Assembly: GCF_000341395.1 (NCBI RefSeq)
Contig: NC_020304.1
Location: forward strand, 3,510,001 to 3,542,000
DNA from: Desulfocapsa sulfexigens DSM 10523
GTDB lineage: Bacteria; Desulfobacterota; Desulfobulbia; Desulfobulbales; Desulfocapsaceae
DNA length: 32,000 nt
Direction of reading: 5' to 3'
How positions within the stretch are numbered: position 1 is the first letter of the stretch; each line of letters begins with the position of its first letter. Positions 1,393 through 21,866 of this stretch are shown in pieces. The notes below the pieces were generated by a model that was not told where the DNA came from, did no database searches, and saw nothing but the letters and a program-made list of their open reading frames with translations. The translations under genes and the position numbers were made by a program.

Positions 1393-4077
1393 TCAGTCCA
1401 TAAGACCGGCAACCATTGCGTTAGTGAGTGCTATGGCTTTGGGATGACGCATGATCATAACTTCTCCACCTGCCATAAGCATGCAGCTGGCTGTAAGTGC
1501 TTCCATCATTATTCCTCGAGTCTCCTGATCACCAATCATATCATCGCTAGGAAGTTTCGTTTCCTTTGCCTTCCAGACTTCACAGCCAAGGTTACAGATG
1601 ATGGGTACCTGAAGCTTTGCATCCTGCTGGGTAAGAGCAGCAATACGAATACGCTCCATTACAGAGTAGGTGTACTCTATACCATAGCCAAGCGCTCCAA
1701 TGGAAGGATCCATCAGGACAGTATCAAGAGAAACACCAAGATTTTCAAGAAGAATGTTTAACTGTTTAGCTAGGTTAACATCAATTGGGGAGGCAGCTAC
1801 AATCGGATGCTGGAATGCCATGGCAGTTGCTCCGATAGTTCTGTAGTTGGAATCCTCAAGGGGCGCAAGACATACTTTTTTATCTCCTATGACGGAGGTA
1901 ATATCTCGCAGAGTTTCGGTATCTTTATCGGAATTACCACATCCCCAGACGATTACTGGGACATCAACTGCAGCAATTACAGCTGCTGCAGTTTTAGCAG
2001 CATCTGCAGCTGAACGATTCATACCATTTGGATCAGTGGAACCGAGGGTAACGGCGATTGCTTCAGCACCATAAACTTTGACACATTTTTCTGCCCAGGC
2101 GACTGGATTGTCAAATACATCGCTAAAGTGCCTGCTAAGCGTCTCTGGCCACTCATCGGGCTTCACATCTGAAACCTCCATGGCAATTAACGGTTTGTTG
2201 GGATGGTCACCTTCAAAGAGATGGAATGGCATAGATGAGGAGCCACCAACAATTTTCTCATTACCTTCATTGCCCAATTTTACAGAACGTAGCTCACCTG
2301 AATATTTGGTTTCGTAATTTGCAGGAGCAACTTTAGTGGAACGGTCTGCAAGCGACACGGTCTCTTTAGCAAGCTCGCCAACACCACTGTCTGCGACCGG
2401 GGCTGGAGCAGCCTGTACATTTGCTTTTGCTTCGGCTTCAGCCTTAACCTTGGCTTCTGCTGCAGCTTTTTCCTCTGCAGCAGCTTTGGCTTTAGCCTCA
2501 TCTGCGGCCTTTGCATCAGCAGCAGCCTTTGCATCTGCTGCTGCTTTTTCCTGTGCCTCGGCTTTCAATTTTGCAGCTGCGGCAGCTTTTAATTTTGCTT
2601 CTTCATCGGCCTTGGCCTCCGCATCCGCCTTTGCTTTGGCGGCCGCTTCAGCTTTTGCCTTTTCTGCAGAATCATCTATTACTGGTGCGGCGGGAGCTGC
2701 TGGAGCAGCAGGCGCTTGTGGAGCAGCGGCTGCTACTGGTGCAACAGGTGCGCTACTCACAACCTCTGGCTCTTTCTTCAAAATAGCATGGGCACCTGCA
2801 AAACTCGACAGTGCCTCAAACTGATCATCAGTTAATCCATAGGCCTTTTTCAATGCGGCCAGGCCAAGATTTACAGAATCAAGGGCCATGATCCGTTCTT
2901 TTTCATTCATTTCATGCTCTCCTGAATCATCAACGCCCTGTGGCGCTTCAGTGGTTATACTGGTGGTTGCAGTGGCAACTGAGCTGACAGCTGCAGCTTT
3001 CTGCTTAAGATTTTCTGCTTCTGCTTTAGCTGCTGCAATAATTGCTGCTGCCTCAGCTTTTGCTTTTTCAAGTAAGGTATCGGTATCAACAGATTGAACT
3101 GTAATCTGTTCCTTAACTTCATCTGTTGCTATCGGCTTAACTGCAGCATCGGTTTCTGTGATACCTGGCCGTGGAAGAAGACCTGCTCTTTTGAGTATTT
3201 CAGGAACTGCGCTCTCCCACTCAATAGCCATGCAGTGAATACCAGCAACACCCTCAATATCCTTCACTTCATTGATTATGTCAGCGCAAATCTGGATACC
3301 TTCGTCCTGCATGTCTTTGGCATCTTTCATCCGTTGAATAACTTCATCGGTGACATCCATGCCGGGAACGAATTTTTTCATGTAACGCGCCATCCCTAAA
3401 GACTTTGGCGGAGTTACACCGGCAAGAATATAGCATTTTTCATGGAGGCCAAGATCCCGAACCATTTTCATGAATTCGCGAAATTTTTCTACATTATATA
3501 TTATCTGAGTCTGAATAAAATCAGCTCCGGCAGCAACTTTTTTCCCCAGACGTACAGCACGATATTCAAAAGGATATGCAAATGGATTTGCAGCAGCTCC
3601 AAGAAAGAGTTTTGGTTCATTACTCTTAATTTCTTCGCCACATTGAAATATCTTATCATCACGCATTCCCTTCATCATTCCAAGCATCTGGATAGAGTCC
3701 ATATCAAAGACCCCTTTTGATCCCGGGTGGTTACCAAATTTTTGATGGTCACCAGTGAGGCAGAGAAGATTTTTCAGACCAAGAGCTGAGGCACCCAGAA
3801 TATCGGACTGCATGCCGATCCTGTTACGATCACGACAGGTCATCTGAATAACGGGTTCAAGCCCTTCTTCTTTTGCGATAAGTCCAGCGGCAATGGATGA
3901 CATACGAACTATCGCAGTCTGACAGTCGGTAATATTGACTGCGTCCACATTGCCTTTCAGTAGTTGCGCCTTTTCACGCACCACTTCAGGATTTCCATTT
4001 TTGGGAGGACCAAGTTCACCGGTTACGACGAATGTCCCCTCTTTTAAAAGTGTTTCTAGTTTACTGCCCGACTTCAT
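1393..4077 (-). CDS. Fusion protein: methylenetetrahydrofolate reductase (MetF-like, aa 1-300), a ~290-aa low-complexity linker, and the corrinoid iron-sulfur protein small subunit (AcsD/CdhD-like, aa ~590-894).
   Basis: An uninterrupted 894-aa ORF. The N-terminal part has MetF-type blocks (VTGELGPPK, NITDCQTA, MTCRDRNR, LCLTGDH, GAAANP, GADFIQTQ). The C-terminal part has AcsD-type blocks (SSSMPFHLFEGD, VPVIVWGCGN, LMDPSIGALGYGIEYTYSVMERIRIAAL, IMRHPKA). An SD gaaggag lies upstream of the ATG at 4077. Confidence 0.85.
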   Translation of the reverse strand: MKSGSKLETLLKEGTFVVTGELGPPKNGNPEVVREKAQLLKGNVDAVNITDCQTAIVRMSSIAAGLIAKEEGLEPVIQMTCRDRNRIGMQSDILGASALGLKNLLCLTGDHQKFGNHPGSKGVFDMDSIQMLGMMKGMRDDKIFQCGEEIKSNEPKLFLGAAANPFAYPFEYRAVRLGKKVAAGADFIQTQIIYNVEKFREFMKMVRDLGLHEKCYILAGVTPPKSLGMARYMKKFVPGMDVTDEVIQRMKDAKDMQDEGIQICADIINEVKDIEGVAGIHCMAIEWESAVPEILKRAGLLPRPGITETDAAVKPIATDEVKEQITVQSVDTDTLLEKAKAEAAAIIAAAKAEAENLKQKAAAVSSVATATTSITTEAPQGVDDSGEHEMNEKERIMALDSVNLGLAALKKAYGLTDDQFEALSSFAGAHAILKKEPEVVSSAPVAPVAAAAPQAPAAPAAPAAPVIDDSAEKAKAEAAAKAKADAEAKADEEAKLKAAAAAKLKAEAQEKAAADAKAAADAKAADEAKAKAAAEEKAAAEAKVKAEAEAKANVQAAPAPVADSGVGELAKETVSLADRSTKVAPANYETKYSGELRSVKLGNEGNEKIVGGSSSMPFHLFEGDHPNKPLIAMEVSDVKPDEWPETLSRHFSDVFDNPVAWAEKCVKVYGAEAIAVTLGSTDPNGMNRSAADAAKTAAAVIAAVDVPVIVWGCGNSDKDTETLRDITSVIGDKKVCLAPLEDSNYRTIGATAMAFQHPIVAASPIDVNLAKQLNILLENLGVSLDTVLMDPSIGALGYGIEYTYSVMERIRIAALTQQDAKLQVPIICNLGCEVWKAKETKLPSDDMIGDQETRGIMMEALTASCMLMAGGEVMIMRHPKAIALTNAMVAGLMD
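2422..2670. repeat. Low-complexity GCN/AAR-rich coding repeat, the Ala/Lys/Glu/Asp core of the MetF-AcsD linker.
   Basis: It encodes SAEKAKAEAAAKAKADAEAKADEEAKLKAAAAAKLKAEAQEKAAADAKAAADAKAADEAKAKAAAEEKAAAEAKVKAEAEAKA. The DNA shows reiterated gcagc/gcttt/gcctt units, which also produce spurious Ala-rich ORFs on the opposite strand. Confidence 0.8.
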
Positions 4078-4173
4078 CGGCTAGACTCCTTCTGCCAAAA
4101 CCTATCTTTTTAATAGCACCTGACTGAACAGCCGCTACACATTTTCAAAAGTAGAATTTCTATTAAAAACTTG

Positions 4174-6171
4174 TCATTTATGCCCGCAACCCAAACCTGG
4201 AATTCCCTGGCCAGTAGCACCGACATCAAGATCACGACGCATCTCCATGTCAAAGAGTACTCTGTCCTTCTTCTTATTGATCCCAAGGGCTTCACGTTTC
4301 CCGTCAATGGCCTTGATCATTTTCTGAGCAAGCTTGATCGGATCTTCTTCATAATCCCAGCAGGCACCATACTCTTCCTTCATACCATTGGTAATGAACT
4401 CGTTCATTTCCTTTGATCCGGTTACCGGAAGGTTCTGGAATATTACATGGGCACCGGAGGTAACAAAGTACTGACCGATGGCCACAGCCTTTTCACTCAT
4501 CCACAGAGGCGCTGTACCACAGGCTGGAAGTTCGGATATGTCTTCACCAAGCCCACCCTCTTTAACCATAGCGGTGAGGGCAATAAGGAGACGACTGTTA
4601 TCAACACAGGAACCGACATGCAGAACAGGTGGCATACCAACAGTCTCACAGACCTCAGCAAGACTTTCTCCACAATATTCGGCAGCTGCTTCTGGTCTCA
4701 TCAGCCCCATACGACCAAGTGCCTGAGCGGCACAACCGGTGGCAAGGACAAGGACGTTATTTTTAAGCAGTTCAACAGCAATCTTAAAATGGACATCATC
4801 ACTGTATTTATAATGTTCACAACCAACCAGAGCGCCAAGTCCTTTAATTCGACCATTAATGATATTGTCATTGAGCGGACGATAGCTCTTACGAAAACGG
4901 CCACCAAGCATATAGTTGATGGTCTCATGGCTGAATCCGACAACAACATCGAGTTTGTTATCTTTAGGAATATAGTAGTCACCACGTTTCTTGAAATTAT
5001 TAATAGCATGGGTGAGGATTGCCTTGGCAGAGCCAAGAGGATCATCTTCCTCAAACTGCATATGGATAGCATCAGGCATCTTCGCCCGATAGTTTGTAGT
5101 AATAATATCAGTATGTTTACCTTTTACCACCTGGGCGACTGACTGCATGACACACTGGACATCAACAACCATAGCTTCCACTGCACCGGTGGCCAGTACC
5201 ATCTCCTGCTGGATAAATGATCCAGCAACTGGAATTCCTCGACGCATAAGAATTTCGTTACCAGTACAGCAGACACCGGCAAGATTAATCCCTTTAGCAC
5301 CTACTTTTTTAGCAAGAGCAAGAATCTCGGGATCCTCGGCTGCCATACAGAGGGACTCAGCCAAAAGTGGCTCATGCCCATGAACGGTAACGTTCACCTG
5401 ATCTTCCTTCAGGACGCCAAGGTCAATAAGGGCACGCCTTGGAACCGGTGTACCAAACATTATATCAGTCAGCTCGGTGGAGAGCATGGAAGCCCCCCAG
5501 CCATCTGCAAGTGAGCAGCGTGCTGCCTGTTTCATGATGTTCTTGTATTCCTGATCAACACCCATATGGGTACGATGCATGGTTTCAACAACCTCACGAT
5601 CAATACCTCTTGGTTCCACACCCTTCGCTTTCCATATTTCCTGCTGTTTCTTGGGAGCACGTTTGAGCATGGTAAGAGTCCCCTGCTGCTGGCCAAATTC
5701 CGCCAGCGCCTTTTCACCAAGCTCAAGAGCGATTTCATTCTTATCACGTCCCTCAATCTCAATCCCGAAGGTTTCGGCCATGGCATGAAGCTTCTCAACA
5801 TCCTTGATTTCATGGGGAGTTTTACCCTTTGCTGTCTCGATAAACCCCATGACCATCTCACGGGCATGGTCTGTATGAGCTGCAGTTCCGGCAGCGACAA
5901 TACGGGCAAAATTTCGAGCAACTACGGTTGCGGCAGTGGCTCCACAGATGCCAATCATCTGCTCGACACCATCAATAATCTGACAGGGCCCCATGTTACA
6001 GATACGGCAGCAGGTACCACCTGAACCAAAGAGACAGGCCGAAACCCCACGGTCTTCTATACGATCGTAGGCAGTTCTTACCTGTTTCGCCAAATCCTGA
6101 TTAAGCAGGTCTTTGGTTGAAGCGCCTGTTATATCATTACAGGATGTGCATCCACCTTTACTCTTGCTCAT
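4174..6171 (-). CDS. cooS: Ni-dependent anaerobic carbon monoxide dehydrogenase catalytic subunit (CooS/AcsA).
   Basis: A 665-aa ORF with the N-terminal D/B-cluster cysteine pattern ACLFGSGGTCCRICNMGPCQI...GICGATA and AAHTDHAREM. CODH-typical blocks continue through to GSCVDNSR and the C-terminus. An SD ggagg lies upstream of the ATG at 6171. Confidence 0.92.
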   Translation of the reverse strand: MSKSKGGCTSCNDITGASTKDLLNQDLAKQVRTAYDRIEDRGVSACLFGSGGTCCRICNMGPCQIIDGVEQMIGICGATAATVVARNFARIVAAGTAAHTDHAREMVMGFIETAKGKTPHEIKDVEKLHAMAETFGIEIEGRDKNEIALELGEKALAEFGQQQGTLTMLKRAPKKQQEIWKAKGVEPRGIDREVVETMHRTHMGVDQEYKNIMKQAARCSLADGWGASMLSTELTDIMFGTPVPRRALIDLGVLKEDQVNVTVHGHEPLLAESLCMAAEDPEILALAKKVGAKGINLAGVCCTGNEILMRRGIPVAGSFIQQEMVLATGAVEAMVVDVQCVMQSVAQVVKGKHTDIITTNYRAKMPDAIHMQFEEDDPLGSAKAILTHAINNFKKRGDYYIPKDNKLDVVVGFSHETINYMLGGRFRKSYRPLNDNIINGRIKGLGALVGCEHYKYSDDVHFKIAVELLKNNVLVLATGCAAQALGRMGLMRPEAAAEYCGESLAEVCETVGMPPVLHVGSCVDNSRLLIALTAMVKEGGLGEDISELPACGTAPLWMSEKAVAIGQYFVTSGAHVIFQNLPVTGSKEMNEFITNGMKEEYGACWDYEEDPIKLAQKMIKAIDGKREALGINKKKDRVLFDMEMRRDLDVGATGQGIPGLGCGHK

Positions 6172-6215: not shown

Positions 6216-7103
6216 TTAGATGAGGTTAGCTGCCATTTTAGCAGCCTGTACAGTATTTTTCATCAGCATGGTGATGGTCATTGGGCCTACGCCACCTGGC
6301 ACAGGAGTGATACAGGATGCAACTTCCTTGACTGCGTCAAAATCAACATCCCCGGCAAGTATTGCCTTTCCATTGCTCGCCTTCCCTATACGGTTAACAC
6401 CGACATCAATAATTGCAGCACCTTCCTTGACCATATCTGCTGTGACCATTTTCGGCACACCAACAGCAGCAATTATGATGTCAGCACGTTTACAATGGGC
6501 GGCCATGTCTTTTGTTCTTGTGTGACAGAGGGTCACCGTGGCATTTCCGCCATCACGCTTTTGAAGCATGAGGTTGGCAATGGGTTTTCCGACAATATTA
6601 GATCGTCCGATCACCACAACCTCTGCACCACTGGTCTCGACACCGCTTCTTGTGAGAAGCTCAAGGATCCCATGGGGTGTGCAGGGGAGAAAACACTGCT
6701 CCCCAAGCACCATCTTTCCAACATTGACCGGATGAAAACCATCCACATCTTTATCCGGATTAATGGCGTAGAGCACATTTGCCTCATTAATGTGCTTTGG
6801 CAGGGGCAACTGTACAAGGATACCATTGATCTTCGAATCCTTGTTATATTTATCAACGAGTTTGAGGAGATCTTCTTCACTGGTCTCAGGATCAAGTGTC
6901 ACCTGCTCCGAATGAATACCAAGAGCGTGGGCGGTCTTATTTTTTGCAGCAACATAGGATTGAGAGGCTGGGTCCTCTCCAACAAGAATAGTTACAAGCC
7001 CTGGAACAACATTATGTTTTTCTTTCAGCTCCGCAACTTCTCTGGTTAACTCCTCACGAATTGCCTTCGCTGTTTCAGTACCGCTAATAAGCTTTGCCGT
7101 CAT
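6216..7103 (-). CDS. folD: Bifunctional 5,10-methylene-THF dehydrogenase / 5,10-methenyl-THF cyclohydrolase.
   Basis: A 295-aa ORF with FolD blocks LVTILVGEDPASQSYV, GILVQLPLP, DKDVDGFHPVNVG, CTPHGILELL, VVVIGRSNIVGKP and PVPGGVGPMT. Confidence 0.95.
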   Translation of the reverse strand: MTAKLISGTETAKAIREELTREVAELKEKHNVVPGLVTILVGEDPASQSYVAAKNKTAHALGIHSEQVTLDPETSEEDLLKLVDKYNKDSKINGILVQLPLPKHINEANVLYAINPDKDVDGFHPVNVGKMVLGEQCFLPCTPHGILELLTRSGVETSGAEVVVIGRSNIVGKPIANLMLQKRDGGNATVTLCHTRTKDMAAHCKRADIIIAAVGVPKMVTADMVKEGAAIIDVGVNRIGKASNGKAILAGDVDFDAVKEVASCITPVPGGVGPMTITMLMKNTVQAAKMAANLI

Positions 7104-9411: not shown

Positions 9412-10461
9412 ATGACACACTGGAAAAAAATCCTGCAAAACTCGGTGAATAGTCCAACAGAACTTGCACACCATTTTGATTTTAATTGTAGCGCATTGGA
9501 AGCAACAAACGCAAGCTTTCCCATGCGAATTAATCCTTATTATTTAGGCCTCATCCAATCGGTCAACGACCCCCTCTGGAGACAGGCAGTTCCCGACCCT
9601 CTTGAACTTAATGATTTCGTATGCATACCCGATCCGCTTGCAGAGGAGGACTTAAGCCCGGTACCTAATCTGGTTCATAAATATCCCGACAGAGTTCTTT
9701 TCCTGGTTACCAGTGAGTGCGCAATGTACTGCAGATTCTGCACCCGAAAGCGTAAAGTAGGAACGCCCAAAATGGCAATCACTGAAGAATCCATCGAGGC
9801 AGGGATACATTATATACAAAAAAATAAAGAGATCAGAGAGGTTCTTCTTTCGGGTGGAGATCCGCTAATGTTATCAGACCGTAAACTCGACTCTCTACTT
9901 TGTCGGATTCGTGCAATTCCAAGCGTTGAAGTCATTCGCATAGGTACCAGAATCCCATGTACCCTTCCAATGCGTGTAACAAAAGAGCTTGCGACCATGC
10001 TCAAAAGACATCATCCTCTCTATATCAACACTCACTTCAACCACCCAAGGGAACTCACGCCCCAGGCAACTGAGGCCTGTACTCTTCTTGCCGACGCCGG
10101 AATCCCCTTGGGTTGCCAGACAGTTCTCCTCAAAGGTGTTAATGATAACGCAGAAACGCTCAAGAAACTCTTCCTCGGACTGCTCCGGATGAGGGTAAAA
10201 CCCTATTATCTCTTTCAGGGAGATCTTACCAGGGGTACTAACCACTTCCGCACTCACACCCGTGACGGAATAGAGATAATGCGGGATCTCATCGGAACGA
10301 TATCCGGAATGGCAATTCCAACTTTTGCCCTCGATGCACCAGGGGGGAAAGGCAAAATCCCACTTACTCCGGATTACATTCTTAACAGCACTGAACAGCT
10401 CACCTTTCATAACTACCAGGGAGTACTCTGTTCCTATCCTGAAAGCGGTGATCCATTATAA
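9412..10461 (+). CDS. KamA-family radical SAM aminomutase (lysine 2,3-aminomutase / EpmB-YjeK-like).
   Basis: A 349-aa ORF with the radical SAM triad CAMYCRFCTRKRK, plus KamA-family blocks HKYPDRVLFLVT, VLLSGGDPL, IRIGTR.P, NTHFNHP.E, NQ.VLLKGVND, PYYLFQ.D and G..HFR. Its length fits the short EpmB-like branch better than the 416-aa clostridial KamA. Confidence 0.85.
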   Translation: MTHWKKILQNSVNSPTELAHHFDFNCSALEATNASFPMRINPYYLGLIQSVNDPLWRQAVPDPLELNDFVCIPDPLAEEDLSPVPNLVHKYPDRVLFLVTSECAMYCRFCTRKRKVGTPKMAITEESIEAGIHYIQKNKEIREVLLSGGDPLMLSDRKLDSLLCRIRAIPSVEVIRIGTRIPCTLPMRVTKELATMLKRHHPLYINTHFNHPRELTPQATEACTLLADAGIPLGCQTVLLKGVNDNAETLKKLFLGLLRMRVKPYYLFQGDLTRGTNHFRTHTRDGIEIMRDLIGTISGMAIPTFALDAPGGKGKIPLTPDYILNSTEQLTFHNYQGVLCSYPESGDPL

Positions 10462-10535
10462 GAATCCATCAACACGTGAATTATCGAATATTCCTGAGAG
10501 GGGCTTAAATATATCTCAAGTATTTTTTACTTTTC

Positions 10536-10565
10536 TTGAAATTCATCTCCATAAGAAGATATAAT
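10536..10565 (+). promoter_or_regulatory. Sigma70-type promoter candidate upstream of the HDOD-GGDEF gene.
   Basis: TTGAAA (10536-10541), an 18-nt spacer, then a consensus TATAAT (10560-10565). This would give a leader of about 130 nt before the ATG at 10701. Confidence 0.4.
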
Positions 10566-10700
10566 TAAAACAGGGTAGCAACTGTTCTTCAAAAGCTACC
10601 GCTGTCATGGACAAAACGTAATAGGTTGAAAGACGTTCCAGGAACCCTTCAACCACTATCTCTCTTTTCTTTCACTCTTATAAAACAATGAGGCTTGGTT

Positions 10701-12251
10701 ATGAACCAGGAAGAAACTCTTGCTGCAGTACTCAATTCCGATGAACTCCCAACCCTACCCACCGTTGCCTCTGAGATTATAACCCTCACGGCAAGAGAGG
10801 ACACAACTCTTGCTGACATTGCAAATCTGGTCTCCAAGGACACTGCGCTTTCTGCAAAAATCCTTAAAGTATCCAACTCTGCTTTTTACAGTTTCCCTCA
10901 GCAGATCAGTTCCATCAACCAGGCTGTCTCCATTCTTGGAATTAATGCAGTACGAAGTCTTGTCCTTTCGTTTTCTTTTTTGAGTATGAAGGGAGGCAAA
11001 AAAAAGCTTCATTTTAATTTTGAAAAATTCTGGAAAAATTCCCTTGCTGCAGCCGTTGCCTCAAAGCTTATCCTTGAACGGGTTAAGGGAGCCGACACCG
11101 AGGAAATTTTCATCTGCGGTTTACTGCAGAATCTTGGACAATTGATTACAGCTGTAACATTCCCCAAGGAGTACGATGAAGTACTCGCCAAGATAGGTGA
11201 AAGTCAATATGATGTTCTAAATGCTGAGAACGACACCTTTGGGACCTCCCACCCAACCATAGGCTATGAGGTTGCCAAAAACTGGGGATTCCCTGAAGTG
11301 CTTCTCCTTCCCATCCTGTATCATCACGACCCGCTGCAATATAAAGGTGGGGATAAAAAAATCGAAGTTACCTGCAAGGCATCCTATCTGGCAGACCTCC
11401 TTATTTCCATTCTTTATTCCGACAAACCACAGGAATTTCACAAGCGTTTTCGTAAGGAAGCTAAGGACCTGCTGGGATTGAACAATGAGGACATGGATCA
11501 TATTCTAAACGAGCTGCACACGCAGGTTGATCATGCCGGTGAATACTTTGGTCTCCGCATTAAAAACACCAAGTCTATCCAGGAAATTCTCCAGGAAGCA
11601 AACATCCGACTCAGCCTGATAAACCTCGATTTCGATCAGATGAACCAGGAGCTTATTAAAGCTAAGATAGAACTTGAAAATCTAACTCGCGAACTGAAAG
11701 AAAAAAACAAACTGCTTGGAAATCTAGCGAACATTGACGGTCTGACGGAGATATTCAATCATCGTTATTTCCAAAACAGCCTCGACAATGAAATCGATCG
11801 CGCACTACGCAATGAAACCAACATAGCACTCCTCTTAATCGACATCGATTTTTTTAAGAAATTCAATGACACCTATGGCCATCAGGTTGGTGACTTCATC
11901 CTCAAGGAATTCAGTGCATTGCTTAAAAAAGAAATTCGCAAATATGACACGCTGGCTCGTTATGGCGGAGAAGAATTCACCATCATCCTGCCTGACACCT
12001 CTGCTGACGAGGCCTGTGCAGTCGCTGAAAAACTTTGTTCAGCAGTAAATGATTATGTCTTCAGGGATCCGCAAACCAATTACCACATCACAGCAAGCTT
12101 CGGTGTTTCCTCAGCCAAACCAGTAACGGATGACACTTTTTCCAAAGAAAATTTCATTAAAATGGCCGACGCAGCTCTCTATGACGCCAAGGAAGCCGGG
12201 AGAAACAGAGTAGCTCTCTATGCAGAAAAGAAAAAATGGTATAAATTTTAA
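10701..12251 (+). CDS. HDOD domain-containing diguanylate cyclase (HDOD, coiled coil, GGDEF).
   Basis: The N-terminus has an HDOD signature (LPTLPTVASEIITL...ILKVSNSAFY...I.SINQAVSILG...GTSHP.IG). A coiled coil covers QMNQELIKAKIELENLTRELKEKNKL. The C-terminus is a GGDEF domain (DGLTEIFNHRYF, LLLIDIDFFKKFNDTYGH) with the active site RYGGEEF and an I-site RKYD five residues upstream. The ORF track starts at a TTG at 10695. I prefer the ATG at 10701, which has gagg 8 nt upstream. Confidence 0.85.
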   Translation: MNQEETLAAVLNSDELPTLPTVASEIITLTAREDTTLADIANLVSKDTALSAKILKVSNSAFYSFPQQISSINQAVSILGINAVRSLVLSFSFLSMKGGKKKLHFNFEKFWKNSLAAAVASKLILERVKGADTEEIFICGLLQNLGQLITAVTFPKEYDEVLAKIGESQYDVLNAENDTFGTSHPTIGYEVAKNWGFPEVLLLPILYHHDPLQYKGGDKKIEVTCKASYLADLLISILYSDKPQEFHKRFRKEAKDLLGLNNEDMDHILNELHTQVDHAGEYFGLRIKNTKSIQEILQEANIRLSLINLDFDQMNQELIKAKIELENLTRELKEKNKLLGNLANIDGLTEIFNHRYFQNSLDNEIDRALRNETNIALLLIDIDFFKKFNDTYGHQVGDFILKEFSALLKKEIRKYDTLARYGGEEFTIILPDTSADEACAVAEKLCSAVNDYVFRDPQTNYHITASFGVSSAKPVTDDTFSKENFIKMADAALYDAKEAGRNRVALYAEKKKWYKF

Positions 12252-12323
12252 TCTGTGCTAATCTAGACGAAAGAAAACTCCATACTATGAAGATGGTTTT
12301 CAGTATGATCAGACTCCCATAAA

Positions 12324-13016
12324 ATGAAACAGACTATGACCGAAACTACTTTTAACTACTGTTTTGATTTCCCAGACAACAGTAAAAAACGTTTTCTTAT
12401 CAAACTTGACCCAAACACTTTTGAATATAAACCCTCCAACAGCACTCCACCAGACTGGGCCCTTTTGGGGATTGCCCGATGTGAATGCTGTCGACTTGAT
12501 CTCTCAGAAAATGACTATTGCCCCATTGCAGCAAACATTGCTGACCTTGTTTTCTCATTTAAAGACACAGCATCGCACAAATCCTGTATGGTATCATGCA
12601 TTTCAACCGCTAGGACCTGCAGTAAAGACACCACAGTCCAGGAAGGACTTGCTTCAATCATGGGTATTATCATGGCCACAAGTGGCTGTCCTTCCATGTC
12701 CATCTTAAAACCCATGGCATGTTACCACCTTCCTTTCGCTACCGTCGAAGAGTCCATGTACCGTTCAGTATCGGCCTACCTGTTACGCCAGTATTTTTCA
12801 CACCGAAAGGGTGAAAACTGTGATTTTTTCATGCACCGTATTCAGGAATATTACAGTGAGGTTCAACAGGTGAATGGGGGGATTTTAAAACGAATCAATA
12901 TGACATCTGAAATGGATGCCGATAAAAATGCTATCGTCACCCTCAACGCCCTGGCCCAGATTCTTGTTATGGAGGTTGACGAGGATCTAGACTCCTTAAA
13001 ACGTCTGTTCTCCTGA
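12324..13016 (+). CDS. Cysteine-rich hypothetical protein; family not recognised.
   Basis: A 230-aa ORF, same strand as the cyclase and 72 bp downstream of it. It has 11 Cys residues, including the clusters CECC and C-X3-C-X6-C (SCMVSCISTARTC). There is no obvious SD and I find no recognisable domain. The coding call rests on length, non-overlap and ordinary composition. Confidence 0.55.
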   Translation: MKQTMTETTFNYCFDFPDNSKKRFLIKLDPNTFEYKPSNSTPPDWALLGIARCECCRLDLSENDYCPIAANIADLVFSFKDTASHKSCMVSCISTARTCSKDTTVQEGLASIMGIIMATSGCPSMSILKPMACYHLPFATVEESMYRSVSAYLLRQYFSHRKGENCDFFMHRIQEYYSEVQQVNGGILKRINMTSEMDADKNAIVTLNALAQILVMEVDEDLDSLKRLFS

Positions 13017-15645: not shown

Positions 15646-18600
15646 ATGACAGATGAATTTTTCCCGTGTACAAATCAGCAGCCGGCCTTATACCATATTT
15701 TCCGTTTAACAACATCGCCTACCATGCAACTCAACTATCCAGCAGAAATTCCTATTGTCTCCTATCGGGAATCATTTCTCGAACTTTTGAAGGAACATCA
15801 AGTTATTATAGTATCTGGAGAGACTGGCTCTGGGAAAACCACTCAACTGCCAAAATTCTGCCTTGAGCATTTCCCCGACACTTCCTTTCACATAGGCTGT
15901 ACCCAACCACGAAGAGTCGCAGCAACCTCTGTTTCTTCACGTGTTGCTACGGAACTTGGTTCCCACAAACAGCTAGTGGGATATAAAATACGATTCCATG
16001 ATAAGACCACCAGTGAGACAAGAATCAAATTTATGACCGACGGTGTATTGCTTGCAGAGACAAGAAAAGATCCACTGTTAAAAAAATATGGCGTTATCAT
16101 AATAGATGAGGCCCATGAACGAAGCCTCAACATAGATTTTCTTCTTGGATACCTCAAAAATATCCTTCCCAATCGACCAGATCTAAAAGTAATCATCACC
16201 TCAGCAACCATTGACACTGCAATTTTCTCAAGACATTTTGACAACGCACCGATCATGGCGGTTGAGGGACGCAGTTACCCGGTAGAAGTTCGCTATAGAA
16301 AGGACCCTGATAATGATGAGGGGGAAGATACCTCCTATGTTGAAGAATGTGTTGAAACCATAGTCGAATTACACCGAAGAGAGATCCCTGAAGATACCCT
16401 GATCTTTCTTCCTACCGAAAAAGATATTCGAGAATGTTGTGAGCTTCTTTCAGGGAAACTTTCAAACACTCTGGTACTCCCCATGTTCGGACGCCTGGCC
16501 GCAGCCGACCAGAAAAAAATATTTAAGCCTTCCCCGCTCACCAAGGTTATCGTTGCGACAAACGTTGCGGAAACTTCAATTACGGTTCCTGGAATTCGCT
16601 ATGTCATAGACTCGGGACTTGCCCGCATATCCCAGTATAATGTCCGGGCACGAACTACCAGTCTCCCGATCACCAGAATATCACGCGCAAGCGCAGACCA
16701 GCGAAAAGGGCGTTGCGGACGTGTAGGACCAGGGATCTGTATCAGACTCTATTCTGAAGCGGATTATCTGGATCGCGATCAGTATATGCTGCCAGAAATC
16801 AAACGTTCGAATCTGGCCGATGTTATACTGCAGATGATAAGTATGAACCTTGGTTCGCCTCTGGATTTCCCGTTCATCGAACCACCTCATCCAGGTGCCA
16901 TCAGAGATGGCTACAATCTCCTCAAAGAACTTGGTGCCCTGCGACCAGACAATCGGTTGAACCGCATAGGTAGGCTGATGGCCAGACTTCCTATAGATCC
17001 CCCTATCTCACGAATCCTGATTGCTGCACGTGAAAACAACTGTGTACGGGAAATAAAAATCATCGCCCCGGCACTCGCCATCCAGGATCCACGTGTCCGT
17101 CCTGCTGACAAAGAAGCCCTGGCAGATGCAGCCCATAAGAAATTCGCTCACGAACATTCAGATTTTTTGAGCCTGCTCAATATCTGGGAGCTTTTTCACA
17201 GTGTAAAGGAGAAGGGGCATTCATGGGGACGATTAAAAAAGTTCTGCAAAAGTCACTTCCTCTCCTTTCAACGGATGCGTGAATGGATAGATCTCCATGA
17301 GCAGTTAAGCAATATCCTGGAACGGGAAAAGGGATTTATTGATAATCAAACTCCGGCATCCTATCCGGCGATTCACAAAAGTCTCTGCACCGGTTTCCTG
17401 AGAAATATCGGTATAAAAAACGAGAAGGAAAAGAAACTCTACCACGGTGCCGGTGGTAAGGAATTCATGGTTTTCCCTGGTTCACACCAATTCCACAGCT
17501 CTGGAAAATGGCTTATCGGAGCAACATTTCTCGAAACCAATCGACTCTACGCCCTGACCGTTGCCAACGTTGAGGTTGAATGGCTTATCGATGCTTCTAC
17601 CCACCTCAGCCGCAGATCGTGGTCCAACCCACGCTGGCAGAAAAAAAGCGGTCAGGTGGTAGCCGATGAAAAAATCAGCCTCTTTGGCCTTATCCTCTCT
17701 GCTGACAGAACAGTAAATTTTGGCAGGACAGGAAAGAAGAATCAGAAAGAGGCACGACAGATTTTTATCCAGCACGCACTTCTCGAAAATGATATTCAGG
17801 GAAACTATTCTTTTCTCCAAAATAACATCGATATCCTGAAAAAATGGCAGGACACGGAAGAACGACTCCGAAAACGTGACCTGGTCGTCGACGATACAAG
17901 TCTCCGGAACTTTTACGACGCCAGACTTCCAGCAGATGTCTATGACAGATTCACCTTGAACCGTTTTCTTTCCCGTAACAAGGATCAAAGTTTCCTCAAT
18001 ATGAAAGAGGAGGATATTCTCGCTCGCAGACCTGAAGACAGGGAGTTACAGGATTTCCCCAAGGAACTGCGTATGGGATCACACACACTTCAACTCAGTT
18101 ACAACCTGACACCCGGAAAGGAGGATGATGGCGTGACCGTACGTATCCCGGTGGATGGCGTTGAAAACTTTTCCGAGTCAGTTTTCGAATGGCTTGTGCC
18201 AGGGCTTCTTCGTGAAAAAGTAAACTTTCTTCTTAAAGGCCTCCCTAAGCGGCTACGGAAACACCTTATCCCTATCCCTAACACGGTGGATCTGCTCCTC
18301 GATGACTGCAACCATTACCAGGGATCTTTGTACCACGCGCTCGAACGTGGCATCTTCAAGATGTTCCGGTTAAGAGTTGGCCGTTCCGACTGGCCTGAAA
18401 TTCTGCCGTCGCACCTCACCATGCGTTATCTTCTATACGATACCAGTGGCAGAACAGTGGCAACTGGAAGAATCCTTCACAAACTTGCCCACAGTGTCAG
18501 CTCTGCTTCCCCCTGTAAGATCACCCCGGATAAAAAAACACAAAATTCACTTGATCGGTGGCAAGATACCCTTTTCCAGAAATGGGATTTTGATGGACTC

Positions 18601-19488
18601 AAGAGAAATATACCACTCTTCACCCAATCCAACGAAATCGCCGGCTATCTCTACCCGGCTCTCCACGTTGAAAGAAATCGCGGTGGAGTGACAATAAGCT
18701 TCGAATCCAATCGTAAAACAGCAGCAACGCTCAACCTCAGCGGAAGCCTCTTCCTCTACCAGCTCAAGTTCAAAGATGAGTTCAAAAGTCTCAAAAAGTA
18801 CTGTCACACAGCCCTGTCTGCACCATCATCACAGTGGCTTATTGCACTGTTTGGCAATAAAACAAAGGCAAATGATGCACTGCTTGAGTTTGTCATGCGC
18901 TCACTCTTTACTCAAAAGCTAGATACAATACCCGACAAATCAACCTATGAAGCCGAAGTAGAAAAGGTTCAACAGTTGGGACTTTACCGAAGGGGACAGG
19001 AAATCTGTGATGAAATGTTTCAGATTTTACGCAAGCGCAAAGAAGTTTCCAGCCATATAAATCACTACGCAGGACTCTCCAGAAAAAGCCATTCTTACAA
19101 TGAAGCACAGTTTAAAGAGTACGAAACTCTGCTGGAAGACATTCTCCCAGCTGATTTTTTAACCACCCAATCGGCGGAAGACCTTGCCGGCTGCGATCGT
19201 TTTTTTCAGGCCCTGAAGATTCGTATAGAGCGTGCCTACGCTAACCCGGCAAAGGATATGACAAAATCCAGACAACTGGAGTCATATGTGAACAGGCAAA
19301 AGCAGATCCCCAGAGACATCACCGGACTCCCCTTTGAATGCAGGAAGGCCCTTTCTCTTTATTCAGCTATGGTAGCGGAGTTCCGGGTAACCATCTTTGC
19401 GCCGGAACTTAAAGGGGGAATGCAGGTTTCGGAAAAGAAACTCAAACTTCAATGGCAGACAGTGCAATCCATCTGCCCGGGTATTTAG
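15646..19488 (+). CDS. hrpA: ATP-dependent DEAH-box RNA helicase HrpA.
   Basis: A 1280-aa ORF with GETGSGKTTQLPK, IIDEAHERS, TSATID, TNVAETSITVPGI and QRKGRCGR, plus the long HrpA-type C-terminal region. The first 26 codons look non-conserved, so the real start may be the ATG at 15724 (MQLNYPAEIPI...). Neither candidate start has a clear SD. Confidence 0.9.
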   Translation: MTDEFFPCTNQQPALYHIFRLTTSPTMQLNYPAEIPIVSYRESFLELLKEHQVIIVSGETGSGKTTQLPKFCLEHFPDTSFHIGCTQPRRVAATSVSSRVATELGSHKQLVGYKIRFHDKTTSETRIKFMTDGVLLAETRKDPLLKKYGVIIIDEAHERSLNIDFLLGYLKNILPNRPDLKVIITSATIDTAIFSRHFDNAPIMAVEGRSYPVEVRYRKDPDNDEGEDTSYVEECVETIVELHRREIPEDTLIFLPTEKDIRECCELLSGKLSNTLVLPMFGRLAAADQKKIFKPSPLTKVIVATNVAETSITVPGIRYVIDSGLARISQYNVRARTTSLPITRISRASADQRKGRCGRVGPGICIRLYSEADYLDRDQYMLPEIKRSNLADVILQMISMNLGSPLDFPFIEPPHPGAIRDGYNLLKELGALRPDNRLNRIGRLMARLPIDPPISRILIAARENNCVREIKIIAPALAIQDPRVRPADKEALADAAHKKFAHEHSDFLSLLNIWELFHSVKEKGHSWGRLKKFCKSHFLSFQRMREWIDLHEQLSNILEREKGFIDNQTPASYPAIHKSLCTGFLRNIGIKNEKEKKLYHGAGGKEFMVFPGSHQFHSSGKWLIGATFLETNRLYALTVANVEVEWLIDASTHLSRRSWSNPRWQKKSGQVVADEKISLFGLILSADRTVNFGRTGKKNQKEARQIFIQHALLENDIQGNYSFLQNNIDILKKWQDTEERLRKRDLVVDDTSLRNFYDARLPADVYDRFTLNRFLSRNKDQSFLNMKEEDILARRPEDRELQDFPKELRMGSHTLQLSYNLTPGKEDDGVTVRIPVDGVENFSESVFEWLVPGLLREKVNFLLKGLPKRLRKHLIPIPNTVDLLLDDCNHYQGSLYHALERGIFKMFRLRVGRSDWPEILPSHLTMRYLLYDTSGRTVATGRILHKLAHSVSSASPCKITPDKKTQNSLDRWQDTLFQKWDFDGLKRNIPLFTQSNEIAGYLYPALHVERNRGGVTISFESNRKTAATLNLSGSLFLYQLKFKDEFKSLKKYCHTALSAPSSQWLIALFGNKTKANDALLEFVMRSLFTQKLDTIPDKSTYEAEVEKVQQLGLYRRGQEICDEMFQILRKRKEVSSHINHYAGLSRKSHSYNEAQFKEYETLLEDILPADFLTTQSAEDLAGCDRFFQALKIRIERAYANPAKDMTKSRQLESYVNRQKQIPRDITGLPFECRKALSLYSAMVAEFRVTIFAPELKGGMQVSEKKLKLQWQTVQSICPGI

Positions 19489-19541
19489 GTATTCAGCTAA
19501 CATTCGGAAGAGTTACTACCTGTTTCACTTCAACACATCAA

Positions 19542-21866
19542 TCAATGTTTAAAAACCATTTCTCGGAAGAAAACAGTCAATCGCTCCCTCCTGCTTTTCA
19601 TACGCACCTGTTCTGGAATAAGATCGGAGGGATCAATTTTCATTACCGCCATCTTGTATTCGATATGTGAAGCAAAACGGTTATCAAGGTACCAGGCATA
19701 GGTAAGGCCCATCAAAAGACCGGGAGGAGTGAACCCCTCCCTGCCGTTTACAAGGCGGGTGAAATGGGTGGCATCGGAGGAATCAGGGACCATCCTCGCC
19801 AGAATCAAATACCGAGCAAGCGCCTCATCACTAAAATAGCACACTCTCTCGCTAAAAGGCTTTAAGTAAAGATGATAGGCTTTGCCAAGAGAACTCTTAC
19901 CTGAAACAAGGGGACGAATTTCTTTACGGGCAGCATAATTCCCAAGAAGTCCCTGGCCAAGGGCGACAAGAAATGCGATCTCAAAGTCGACATTGGAGGA
20001 AAATTGATCCTGGCGAATTTTCACCATGCAATCCTCGGGGTCATAAAAGGAAAAAACTTTATCCCAGTTTTGATTTCTTTTCCATTTTTTATCGGCAATG
20101 CACTGTATTCCCTTGACGAACAGCAGATGTTCCATGGGGATATCTTTATGAGTCCAGAGGATTTCCCGCAGAGTCTGCTTTATTGCATCCACCTTCTTGT
20201 GTGAGTTTCTGGACAGTTCAATCCGAAGCCCCGACAGATATTCATTTATTTTTGTATAGCGGAGACACGGAACCTGCATGGAGGTCAGGTATTTTCGTTT
20301 GGGATCGACGACTTGAGACTTTCTGGAACCTGAAACGAGCGGAACTGGCAGGGTAGATGCAATTGCCCAAAGAGTACGGACAACCAGTGCAAACTGTTTC
20401 GGATCATGCCTGATTACTCCGTCATCCCGAAGCGCTGTCCTGGAATAAATCCCGCATTCCAGAGGAATAATTCCCTGTTCTCTCACTTCATCACGATCGA
20501 GATAAATAGGAATTTTCCCCTCAACCGCATAGTTCTGAATGACCGTAGCAGGCACGTCTTTCAAAGAGAGACACAACACCTTATCAAAGAGCCCTCCAGT
20601 TCCTCCAGGAATATTGCGCTCGTAGGCCTTCAACAGATCGGAAAGAAGAAACTTTCGTTCAGGGTTGTAAATACTGATGTCCGTTTCTCCTGCCTGAACC
20701 CAAAGATTAGATACAAGAATTTTCAAGGCCTTCCTGTTATTTTTCACGGCCTCTGCAATCTTTGGTACCTGAAAAATCGGCACCAGGGAACTGTACAAAC
20801 TTCCAGGGGCCATGATCATAATATCTGCATTATGAATAAGCCCAAGGACATCGTCACTCACTTCAGGTTCCGCACAGAAATTGATCAGAACCGTATCAAC
20901 AGGGTATCCCCTTCTGGCCTCACTTGATTTGTGTTCTCCTGTCACCTGAACACCGTTTGTGTATCGTAGACTGAGCTCAGCAGGCACGTATGTACACGGC
21001 ATAACAGCATGTTCGTCGGCCCCGAGAATTGTACAAAGGGAAGCAATTCCCCTATGAATATTCTGACGGATCAGATCGGGTTCGCTAATAAGCGCTGCAT
21101 TAGTAAAATGAGCGGGTATCTGTTCATAAATGGAGGAGACGAGAATAAGGTTGCCAAGGCAATGGGGCCGATTCAAAGTAACCTGAAGGCGGGGATCAAC
21201 AAAAAGCTTGTGAATAATCCGTTCAAGCGAGCCGAATATGGCTGCCGGAAGAACAGTGTCAGCGTCACCGATCAATCCGCAATCGTGAAGCAACTTGGTG
21301 TTGCTCGTTGGCTTTTCACTGAATCGGTGGTTAAATACACGAGCAAGAATTTTAACACACTGAGCCGCTTCAATCTCTGTAAGCGAGTAATATTCCTGTA
21401 GTCTGGCAAGTTGGATGGAGGAGAGCAGCACATGGCGAATATCACCAAGAGCAATGAGCGGCAGATCTTTCAGCAGTTCACCCGTCGAACCGCCGTCATC
21501 GGTTATACAAACTATGGATCTGGTTTTTGGAAAAAGCGCTTTCAGCCCCTGAAAAGGATCATTTACCCAGGATTCGGCTCGACTGTCCCCACCAATAATG
21601 GTCGAGAGCCCGGTTCCTCCACCAAAGACCACAACATTGAGGTGGGAAACAGGCTCCTGGTTGAGACTGTTTTTAACTCGTTGAAGATCGGTTGCGGTCT
21701 CTGGTGGAAGCCCGTCTGGAACTCCAGCCAGGACGAGTTCCACCAGTTTTTCACGAATGTCAGTATGGGGGAGCAGGTCTAAAGGTGAAAGAGCTTTCCG
21801 GTCTATCTGTTTGAGGCATTCGGCCACGCCGGATTCTACTAACTCTGTTGTCTCTTTCACTTCCAC
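19542..21866 (-). CDS. Large YvcK/CofD-family (UPF0052, gluconeogenesis factor / GlmR-like) protein with N- and C-terminal extensions.
   Basis: A 774-aa ORF. Residues ~76-505 carry YvcK/CofD blocks (VVVFGGGTGLST, ITDDGGSTGELL, LGDIRHVL, NHRF, HCLGNLIL, ADIMIMAPGSLYSSLVP, SNLWVQAGET). Residues ~510-774 match nothing I recognise. The start is a GTG at 21866 with an SD agaggga that overlaps the mdh stop codon 12 nt upstream. There is no in-frame ATG for more than 290 codons. Confidence 0.75.
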   Translation of the reverse strand: MEVKETTELVESGVAECLKQIDRKALSPLDLLPHTDIREKLVELVLAGVPDGLPPETATDLQRVKNSLNQEPVSHLNVVVFGGGTGLSTIIGGDSRAESWVNDPFQGLKALFPKTRSIVCITDDGGSTGELLKDLPLIALGDIRHVLLSSIQLARLQEYYSLTEIEAAQCVKILARVFNHRFSEKPTSNTKLLHDCGLIGDADTVLPAAIFGSLERIIHKLFVDPRLQVTLNRPHCLGNLILVSSIYEQIPAHFTNAALISEPDLIRQNIHRGIASLCTILGADEHAVMPCTYVPAELSLRYTNGVQVTGEHKSSEARRGYPVDTVLINFCAEPEVSDDVLGLIHNADIMIMAPGSLYSSLVPIFQVPKIAEAVKNNRKALKILVSNLWVQAGETDISIYNPERKFLLSDLLKAYERNIPGGTGGLFDKVLCLSLKDVPATVIQNYAVEGKIPIYLDRDEVREQGIIPLECGIYSRTALRDDGVIRHDPKQFALVVRTLWAIASTLPVPLVSGSRKSQVVDPKRKYLTSMQVPCLRYTKINEYLSGLRIELSRNSHKKVDAIKQTLREILWTHKDIPMEHLLFVKGIQCIADKKWKRNQNWDKVFSFYDPEDCMVKIRQDQFSSNVDFEIAFLVALGQGLLGNYAARKEIRPLVSGKSSLGKAYHLYLKPFSERVCYFSDEALARYLILARMVPDSSDATHFTRLVNGREGFTPPGLLMGLTYAWYLDNRFASHIEYKMAVMKIDPSDLIPEQVRMKSRRERLTVFFREMVFKH

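Follow-up and report, generated by a model that had tools for sequence, protein, structure and literature searches.

A single gene of Desulfocapsa sulfexigens DSM 10523 joins the coding sequences for two components of the Wood-Ljungdahl pathway, a methylene-tetrahydrofolate (methylene-THF) reductase of the MetF type and AcsD, the small subunit of the corrinoid iron-sulfur protein (CFeSP), and this metF~acsD fusion gene is genuine and evolutionarily conserved. It lies on the reverse strand of the window analysed here, the whole stretch of 32,000 nucleotides (nt) from position 3,510,001 to 3,542,000 of contig NC_020304.1, and its open reading frame (ORF) of 894 amino acids (aa) starts with ATG and is free of internal stops. 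The most plausible interpretation, to which we attach a probability of about 0.75, is that the product is a bifunctional Wood-Ljungdahl polypeptide that would tether an Hdr-linked MetF to CFeSP. The fusion is already known and is widespread in sulfur-cycling Desulfobacterota, yet it is uncharacterised biochemically.

Two barrels in a single reading frame

The N-terminal part of the polypeptide is matched by the Pfam family PF02219 (MTHFR) at aa 6-299 (E 8.8e-37, 127 bits against a cut-off of 24) over positions 1-287 of the 287 in the profile, and its best NCBIfam match is with positions 311-585 of NF006396 (220 bits), the reductase half of a YitJ-type bifunctional model. In a PDB sequence search aa 65-301 match human MTHFR (6fcx, E 4e-14), to which, as to Thermus MTHFR, the relationship is distant. 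Folds were compared with Foldseek on an AlphaFold model computed from a 50-sequence alignment, which has a mean predicted local distance difference test score (pLDDT) of 79 with both barrels mostly above 88; an earlier model from a shallow 30-sequence alignment (pLDDT 59) was excluded from the fold search. The N-terminal barrel superimposes on Thermus MTHFR 8eac_B with a template modelling (TM) score of 0.82, the highest among MTHFRs. Glu21, Asp110 and Gln191 align with the motifs EFFPP, RGD and TQ of the Thermus enzyme and are invariant in 50 family members; their E. coli counterparts are presumably Glu28, Asp120 and Gln183. A Leu stands at the position equivalent to E. coli Phe223. The domain falls in the MetV-associated, acetogen-type clade, in which its nearest relatives without an AcsD fusion are often MetV-MetF fusions. 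The N-terminal barrel is thus most likely a flavin-dependent methylene-THF reductase, as judged from these family, fold and residue matches.

The C-terminal part is matched by PF03599 (CdhD) at aa 599-877 (E 5.7e-42, 144 bits against a cut-off of 24.8) and by the NCBIfam subfamily model for AcsD, NF003376 (366 bits against a cut-off of 280); with the stricter exception model NF040759 (WLP_AcsD) the score is 299, under the cut-off of 430. Residues 602-889 match the Moorella AcsD chain 4djd_D (E 7.5e-81), and the barrel superimposes on 2h9a_B with a TM score of 0.96 and on 4djd_D with 0.91 at 41% identity, the root mean square deviation being 1.2-1.6 Å. Compared with the stand-alone AcsD of Moorella and Carboxydothermus (4DJD chain D, 2H9A chain B and 9FZY chain E), the barrel is full-length and 41-42% identical with TM scores of 0.91-0.96. 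The solved stand-alone proteins differ in having 310-323 aa and no N-terminal extension, whereas 590 residues precede the barrel in the fusion. The AcsD barrel is canonical and would pair with AcsC into CFeSP. As in the stand-alone systems, an AcsC gene (FeS and CdhD domains) is found nearby in relatives, two genes downstream of the fusion in 59 related loci; the window stops inside acsB.

A preliminary description of this DNA, made from the letters and a list of ORFs, had placed MetF at aa 1-300 and AcsD/CdhD at the C-terminal residues of one uninterrupted frame, with no stop or frame change in between. Assignments and coordinates of both domains proved correct (Pfam, PDB and fold for MetF; Pfam, NCBIfam, PDB and fold for AcsD), the N-terminal MTHFR and C-terminal CdhD matches lie on the same polypeptide far above their cut-offs, and the uninterrupted frame is borne out by the ORF itself and by the in-frame changes described below. 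Its statement that the characterised acetogen systems hold MetF and AcsD on separate polypeptides is likewise supported.

That two ordinary genes were joined by a collapsed or chimeric repeat, or by an annotation error, has to be weighed because the region is awkward for assemblers. Among 81 related loci, taken from GTDB species genomes and metagenome contigs, 12 are exceptional, the contig end cutting ten inside or near the linker between the domains and a frameshift affecting two (L044 and L075). Against this, both domains stand in one ORF at 68 of the 81 loci, all 68 with Desulfobulbia-type or unresolved labels, so that the same single ORF recurs in 68 independent assemblies, and the fusion is also present in complete genomes (Desulfolithobacter dissulfuricans GF1; Thermosulfuriphilus ammonigenes CP048877). 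In comparisons with seven close relatives, in which linker DNA identity is 66-78%, about 75 insertions and deletions were counted (9-12 per comparison), and all are multiples of three. The two other coding-strand frames of the linker hold 13 and 28 stops, and its DNA is barely repetitive, with one weak 24-nt repeat present twice and otherwise negligible tandem repetition. Since the fusion is conserved across loci and the insertions and deletions are always in frame, this comparative evidence excludes an assembly artefact for practical purposes, and the probability that remains for it is negligible.

Contigs of metagenome-assembled genomes (MAGs) that stop inside the fusion gene, in or near the linker, are L018, L019, L020, L022, L033, L037, L051, L057, L066 and L068-L070. 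Owing to such cuts the fusion is frequently recorded as two partial genes, and acsD or metF may look absent in pathway reconstructions.

Distribution and earlier records

The combination of MTHFR and CdhD occurs in more than 1000 database proteins from Desulfobulbia, Dissulfuribacteria and Thermodesulfobacteria. The 120 best database matches of the window protein all carry both Pfam families and have lengths of 862-927 aa. In a scan of 1.84 billion representative proteins clustered at the 50% identity level there are few full-length fusion clusters (P0121 and P0122), and a second search, seeded with P0122, a 54%-identical fusion, returned both families in 119 of the 120 best matches, the exception being a partial MTHFR-only entry; the MTHFR plus CdhD proteins of this search span 700-1112 aa. 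The window protein itself, whose exact sequence has no entry in the protein collection searched, is an ordinary ortholog, 82-94% identical to proteins of Desulfocapsa MAGs. Hosts among the Thermodesulfobacteria are Caldimicrobium, Thermosulfurimonas dismutans, T. marina, Thermodesulfatator, Thermosulfuriphilus and Thermodesulfobacterium, those among the Dissulfuribacteria are Dissulfurimicrobium and Dissulfurirhabdus, and those among the Desulfobulbia include Desulfobulbaceae. Named hosts also include Ca. Electronema, Desulfocapsa and the Desulfurivibrio family. The named hosts are largely autotrophs, known as sulfur disproportionators or cable bacteria.

The fusion also has a place in the literature. 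The genome paper of Desulfurivibrio alkaliphilus AHT2 (Melton et al. 2016, PMC5016858) mentions an "mthfr/acsD ... fusion" in the legend of a figure, as an annotation that no functional analysis accompanies, and credits the cluster definitions for the delta proteobacterium MLMS-1 to Pierce et al. 2008. In this Desulfobacterota mthfr/acsD fusion the two domains share one ORF between acsA and acsB, and the window shows the same arrangement. D. alkaliphilus and MLMS-1 belong to the same class (Desulfobulbia) and share the domain architecture and the order acsA-fusion-acsB-acsC, near which folD and a formate dehydrogenase gene are also found; the differences lie in organism and linker details only. 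The two domains of an ortholog in a Desulfurivibrionaceae MAG (L010) show identities of 80% and 71%. The preliminary description could not say whether the architecture was on record; the number of database proteins and the naming of the fusion in PMC5016858 show that it is both common and described. Most other genome papers overlook the fusion and, like the Prokaryotic Genome Annotation Pipeline (PGAP), label it by one domain, and full-text literature searches found no functional or biochemical study of it.

Gene neighbourhood and electron supply

The genes visible in the window follow the order folD-acsA-fusion-acsB on the reverse strand (Table 1), with gaps of 44, 96 and 72 nt in which no terminator-like site was found. 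The acsA gene encodes the catalytic subunit of the nickel carbon monoxide dehydrogenase (CODH), and acsB the acetyl-CoA synthase (ACS), of which the ortholog in the close relative L001 carries CODH_A_N, CdhC and ACS_CODH_B_C. In relatives the cluster goes on with acsC, a selenocysteine (Sec) formate dehydrogenase fused to an NfnB/GltD-like domain, a 942-aa Sec HdrA-like flavoprotein and a Sec MvhD. The synteny folD-acsA-fusion-acsB-acsC-fdh-hdrA-like is kept in 34-73 loci; 47 related Desulfobulbia loci have the HdrA-like ortholog, and the Sec MvhD follows in the two that reach far enough.

Table 1. Features of the metF~acsD region, in window coordinates
Feature	Position	Strand	Basis and remarks
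metF~acsD fusion gene, complete	1393..4077	-	894 codons plus stop; ORF list, translation, both Pfam families on a single chain
Shine-Dalgarno-like AGGAG	4086..4090	-	8 nt 5' of the ATG at 4077; read off the sequence
MetF (MTHFR) TIM-barrel domain, aa 1-300	3178..4077	-	PF02219, NF006396, fold match
Interdomain linker, aa 301-590	2308..3177	-	Composition, conservation profile, pLDDT
Predicted linker helix, aa 332-364	2986..3084	-	pLDDT 72-82; core aa 341-350 conserved 74%
Conserved helical-hairpin module, aa 383-436	2770..2931	-	Motif GEHEMNEKER...GLxALKKAYGLxDDQFEAL
Pro/Ala-rich hinge, aa 437-469	2671..2769	-	Length variable; predicted disordered, pLDDT 32-46
Long Ala/Lys/Glu-rich helix, aa 470-549	2431..2670	-	Predicted for aa 470-550, pLDDT 61-78; TolA-like low-complexity hit
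AcsD (CFeSP small subunit) TIM-barrel domain, aa 591-894	1396..2307	-	PF03599, NF003376, 4djd_D, fold
acsB (acetyl-CoA synthase), N-terminal 440 codons	1..1320	-	Cut by the window start; 72 nt 3' of the fusion gene; translation
acsA (Ni-CODH catalytic subunit)	4174..6171	-	96 nt upstream of the fusion; prismane/CODH family, E 1.2e-150
folD (methylene-THF dehydrogenase/cyclohydrolase)	6216..7103	-	THF_DHG_CYH and THF_DHG_CYH_C; the cluster's first gene inside the window

The preliminary description had noted that no metV, hdr or rnfC-like gene sits next to the fusion and had taken this to bear on the electron donor of MetF. This is a window-edge effect: the apparent lack of such neighbours arises because the window ends inside acsB, and the cluster of relatives has hdrA and mvhD. 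The presence of hdrA and mvhD, and in part metV, in these clusters points to the known Hdr/MvhD type of MetF partner and not to a new donor. The operon of Thermosulfuriphilus ammonigenes, Dissulfurirhabdus thermomarina and a Caldimicrobium-like contig opens with fhs-folD-acsA-hdrA(Sec)-mvhD-like-fer4-flpD-metV-metF~acsD; acsB-acsC-acsE-fdh follow in the first two, and the Caldimicrobium-like contig breaks off within the gene next to the fusion on its downstream side. The metV gene stands immediately upstream of the fusion in loci L082, L083 and L084. The Desulfocapsa relatives and Thermosulfuriphilus, where the gene lies upstream of metV-metF~acsD, have HdrA-like proteins with 57% identity over 943 residues. 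Because of this synteny MetF can be tied to an electron module of HdrA and MvhD, ancestrally also of MetV, and electrons for the MetF domain most probably arrive via the Sec HdrA-like flavoprotein and MvhD of the cluster, as the gene neighbourhood suggests.

The closest known parallel is the methylene-THF reductase complex HdrABC-MvhD-MetFV of Moorella thermoacetica, which contains the type III MetF of acetogens and which Mock and co-workers are said to have described in 2014. Its MetF and the MetF domain of the fusion share the MetV-associated clade, the relatives' cluster holds HdrA-like and MvhD genes, and in Thermodesulfobacteria and Dissulfuribacteria the likeness extends to hdrA-mvhD-fer4-flpD-metV directly upstream of the fusion; the parallel is one of genes. 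It differs in that MetF is covalently joined to AcsD, in that the HdrA and MvhD carry selenocysteine, and in that the Desulfobulbia clade is without a nearby metV and without an HdrBC-like gene near the fusion. The idea that the invariant Cys52, Cys81 and Cys106 of the MetF domain make up an Fe-S site in place of MetV was rejected: Cys81 and Cys106 are common across the MetV-associated clade, and there is no cluster-like motif.

Each of the HdrA-like, MvhD-like and formate dehydrogenase genes has an in-frame TGA at a conserved Cys position, exemplified by TNDCS[LI]-TGA-ILAPK in HdrA, which suggests that these codons specify selenocysteine. The genes lie in L083 (4422-7481 and 7503-8267), L004 (~16560-19599 and 19661-20239) and L001 (16462-20625), and gene callers split each gene into two ORFs.

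In none of the 81 Desulfobulbia loci does the cluster have an acsE less than 10 kb from the fusion. In the genome paper of Ca. Desulfobulbus rimicarensis the fusion ortholog (2679 nt) is listed as 'MetF' and transcribed in situ, a separate acsD is not listed, acsE is on another contig and highly expressed, and metV is reported absent.

Elsewhere in the window, a 774-aa ORF (19542-21866, reverse strand) has CofD over aa 78-466 as its sole Pfam match and is far longer than a typical CofD/YvcK. At 9412-13016 on the forward strand, divergent from a malic enzyme gene, lie a radical-SAM lysine-2,3-aminomutase-like gene, an HDOD-GGDEF diguanylate cyclase gene and a DUF6901 gene, and these neighbours also flank the acs cluster in L001.

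The linker and the likely role of the fusion

The linker of 290 aa consists of 31% Ala, 11% Lys and 11% Glu and contains no Cys. Its pLDDT falls below 50 at aa 308-329, 365-390, 435-469 and 549-560, and aa 301-331 and 365-390 are predicted to be disordered. The hairpin module, with helices predicted at aa 392-413 and 417-433, is 62-98% identical in 68 loci with a column identity of 70-82%, and its near-invariant polar residues define the motif GEHxMNExER...GLxALK...DxQF. A hidden Markov model (HMM) of this module matches all 120 top-hit fusions and 62 of 114 proteins examined from the second search and the clusters P0121 and P0122; the module is absent from the Glu/Lys/Val-rich Thermodesulfobacteria type. 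In the hinge, aa 451-460 have a gap fraction of 0.69. The following Ala/Lys/Glu-rich helix of about 80 residues would measure about 12 nm if it is one single helix, and in the model the segment aa 550-596 partly packs against the AcsD barrel. The early picture of a ~290-aa low-complexity tether is thus right as to length and Ala/Lys/Glu bias, but a purely low-complexity tether does not agree with a conserved module and three predicted helical elements.

No Pfam family matches the hairpin module, for which there is a weak TPR_CcmH hint only (E 0.098). Kinship with TALE repeats was rejected: the PDB E value of 4e-33 is the sum of about 20 individually insignificant repeat matches, and a single repeat (2kq5) reaches E 0.7. 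The TALE-like profile (ALExV..L..L..A.GL..DQ..A.A) suggests a similar two-helix hairpin at most, not homology. The same hairpin had seemed by eye to be present in Caldimicrobium-type linkers (P0122 and P0128), where the HMM finds none.

Across the family the linker ranges from 107 to 509 aa, and its composition shifts by clade from Ala/Lys/Glu to Glu/Lys/Val to Pro/Ala/Glu. Many relatives, among them Dissulfuribacteria- and Thermosulfuriphilus-type proteins, have TPR repeats inserted in it. The variability of the linker speaks for a loose tether, the conserved hairpin and the inserted TPR repeats for specific contacts.

The proposed function can be outlined as follows. The N-terminal barrel would make methyl-THF, or consume it in the oxidative direction, and the C-terminal AcsD would pair with AcsC as CFeSP. 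A linker that is partly disordered and partly helical would fix a 1:1 ratio of MetF to AcsD on one chain, with a reach that we estimate at well over 10 nm, the helices alone exceeding 10 nm if extended. Methyl-THF turnover would thereby adjoin the methyl-transfer station of CFeSP and AcsE and the CODH/ACS encoded on either side, with separately encoded AcsE still required for the methyl transfer and with MetF electrons passing through the Sec HdrA-like flavoprotein and MvhD, in parallel to the Moorella complex. It is reasonable to suppose that the final step of the methyl branch is kept close to the methyl acceptor by the fusion, and the tethering may bring a kinetic benefit.

Some points weigh against this bifunctional tether. 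The full-length, uncleaved product of ~95 kDa is a prediction from the genes. The large variation of linker length and composition argues against a precise geometric or channelling role. No metV (DUF5981/PF12225) was found in the window or within 10 kb of the fusion in the 81 Desulfobulbia loci, and a path from HdrA/MvhD to the MetF flavin would in these bacteria lack the usual MetV Fe-S relay; the survey of metV and acsD covered the loci around the fusion.

Other explanations were weighed with these points in mind. The fusion could be near-neutral, of the 'Rosetta-stone' kind, fixing co-expression and a 1:1 stoichiometry with the linker as a mere spacer and neither channelling nor a supercomplex. 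The span of linker lengths and the compositional shifts between clades are compatible with this, as are the solubility of methyl-THF as an intermediate and the fact that AcsE is a separate protein; the fusion of AcsD to AcsB, to CODH and to other extensions further suggests that AcsD tolerates fusion easily. A mere spacer does not, however, sit well with a fusion kept across three Desulfobacterota classes and with a frame strictly held through a fast-evolving linker, nor with a near-invariant polar module and TPR repeats typical of protein-protein contacts, and we regard such a near-neutral origin as possible but rather unlikely. The opposite possibility is that the linker is a structured scaffold whose hairpin or TPR repeats dock AcsE, ACS or HdrA/MvhD, giving a bacterial megacomplex comparable to the archaeal acetyl-CoA decarbonylase/synthase (ACDS). 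It draws on the invariant motif of the hairpin and on the TPR repeats in the same linker of Dissulfuribacteria- and Thermosulfuriphilus-type proteins, on the recurrence of a disordered-helix-Pro/Ala layout N-terminal to AcsD elsewhere, and on the oligomerising helix in the N-terminal region of archaeal CdhD (bioRxiv 10.64898/2026.07.07.736967). Yet the hairpin and the archaeal helix have no detectable sequence relationship (hhalign 0.2%), Thermodesulfobacteria-type fusions lack the hairpin and no docking partner emerged, so this scaffold can be entertained only tentatively. Its furthest extension, in which the linker recruits AcsE, ACS and/or HdrA-MvhD, the methyl branch, the flavin-based electron-bifurcating reductase and CFeSP form one ACDS-like megacomplex in sulfur-disproportionating Desulfobacterota, and AcsD, given its fusions to AcsB and to CODH, acts as a general fusion hub in bacteria, appears doubtful.

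It might also be argued that the MetF-like domain is no reductase, serving instead as a structural or folate-binding module or in place of AcsE, given the Leu at the Phe223 equivalent and an acsE missing from the cluster in 81 of 81 Desulfobulbia loci. The catalytic Glu, Asp and Gln are, however, invariant across the 50 family members, and the only other metF of Ca. D. rimicarensis is one 628-aa gene, a size that we take to fit the YitJ-like methionine-pathway type. A role as AcsE substitute was rejected on the presence of acsE itself, highly expressed elsewhere in the genome of Ca. D. rimicarensis and located in the same operon in Thermosulfuriphilus and Dissulfurirhabdus. A domain without reductase function is consequently very improbable.

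The scan of representative proteins also yielded other AcsD fusions, with several different Wood-Ljungdahl partners, from other lineages. AcsB-AcsD proteins (~1210 aa; P0199, P0266, P0222, P0205 and P0234), an AcsD-CODH protein (1122 aa; P0141) and AcsD with a long C-terminal extension (P0129, P0136 and P0147) resemble the metF~acsD product in that AcsD is joined via a long Pro/Ala/Glu/Lys-rich linker with a short amphipathic helix, and differ in partner and domain order. A disordered region, a short amphipathic helix and a Pro/Ala tract recur N-terminal to AcsD in the AcsB-AcsD and N-extended AcsD proteins. In archaeal CdhD, too, an N-terminal disordered extension with a short helix and then a Pro/Ala tract precedes the small subunit, but this extension has ~90 aa, is attached to no other enzyme and has no sequence similarity to the fusion linker. 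According to bioRxiv 10.64898/2026.07.07.736967 the region, which carries an oligomerising helix, has no counterpart in bacterial AcsD. That the linker hairpin is homologous to this helix was rejected at an hhalign probability of 0.2%, which leaves an architectural analogy only. Among MetF proteins, P0125 (455 aa) combines MetF with a C-terminal region that looks like a response-regulator receiver, and P0187 (1681 aa) unites MetV and MetF with all modules of cobalamin-dependent methionine synthase.

Taken as an Hdr-linked MetF tethered to CFeSP, the metF~acsD product would represent a naturally occurring covalent connection of an Hdr-type MetF with CFeSP in cultivable autotrophs (Desulfocapsa, Desulfurivibrio, Thermosulfuriphilus and Thermosulfurimonas). 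Pathway reconstructions that seek separate metF and acsD genes will call one of them missing in the lineages that carry the fusion. The fusion could serve as an experimental handle on the way in which the formation of methyl-THF, its supply with electrons and the passage of the methyl group to the corrinoid protein are arranged in space.

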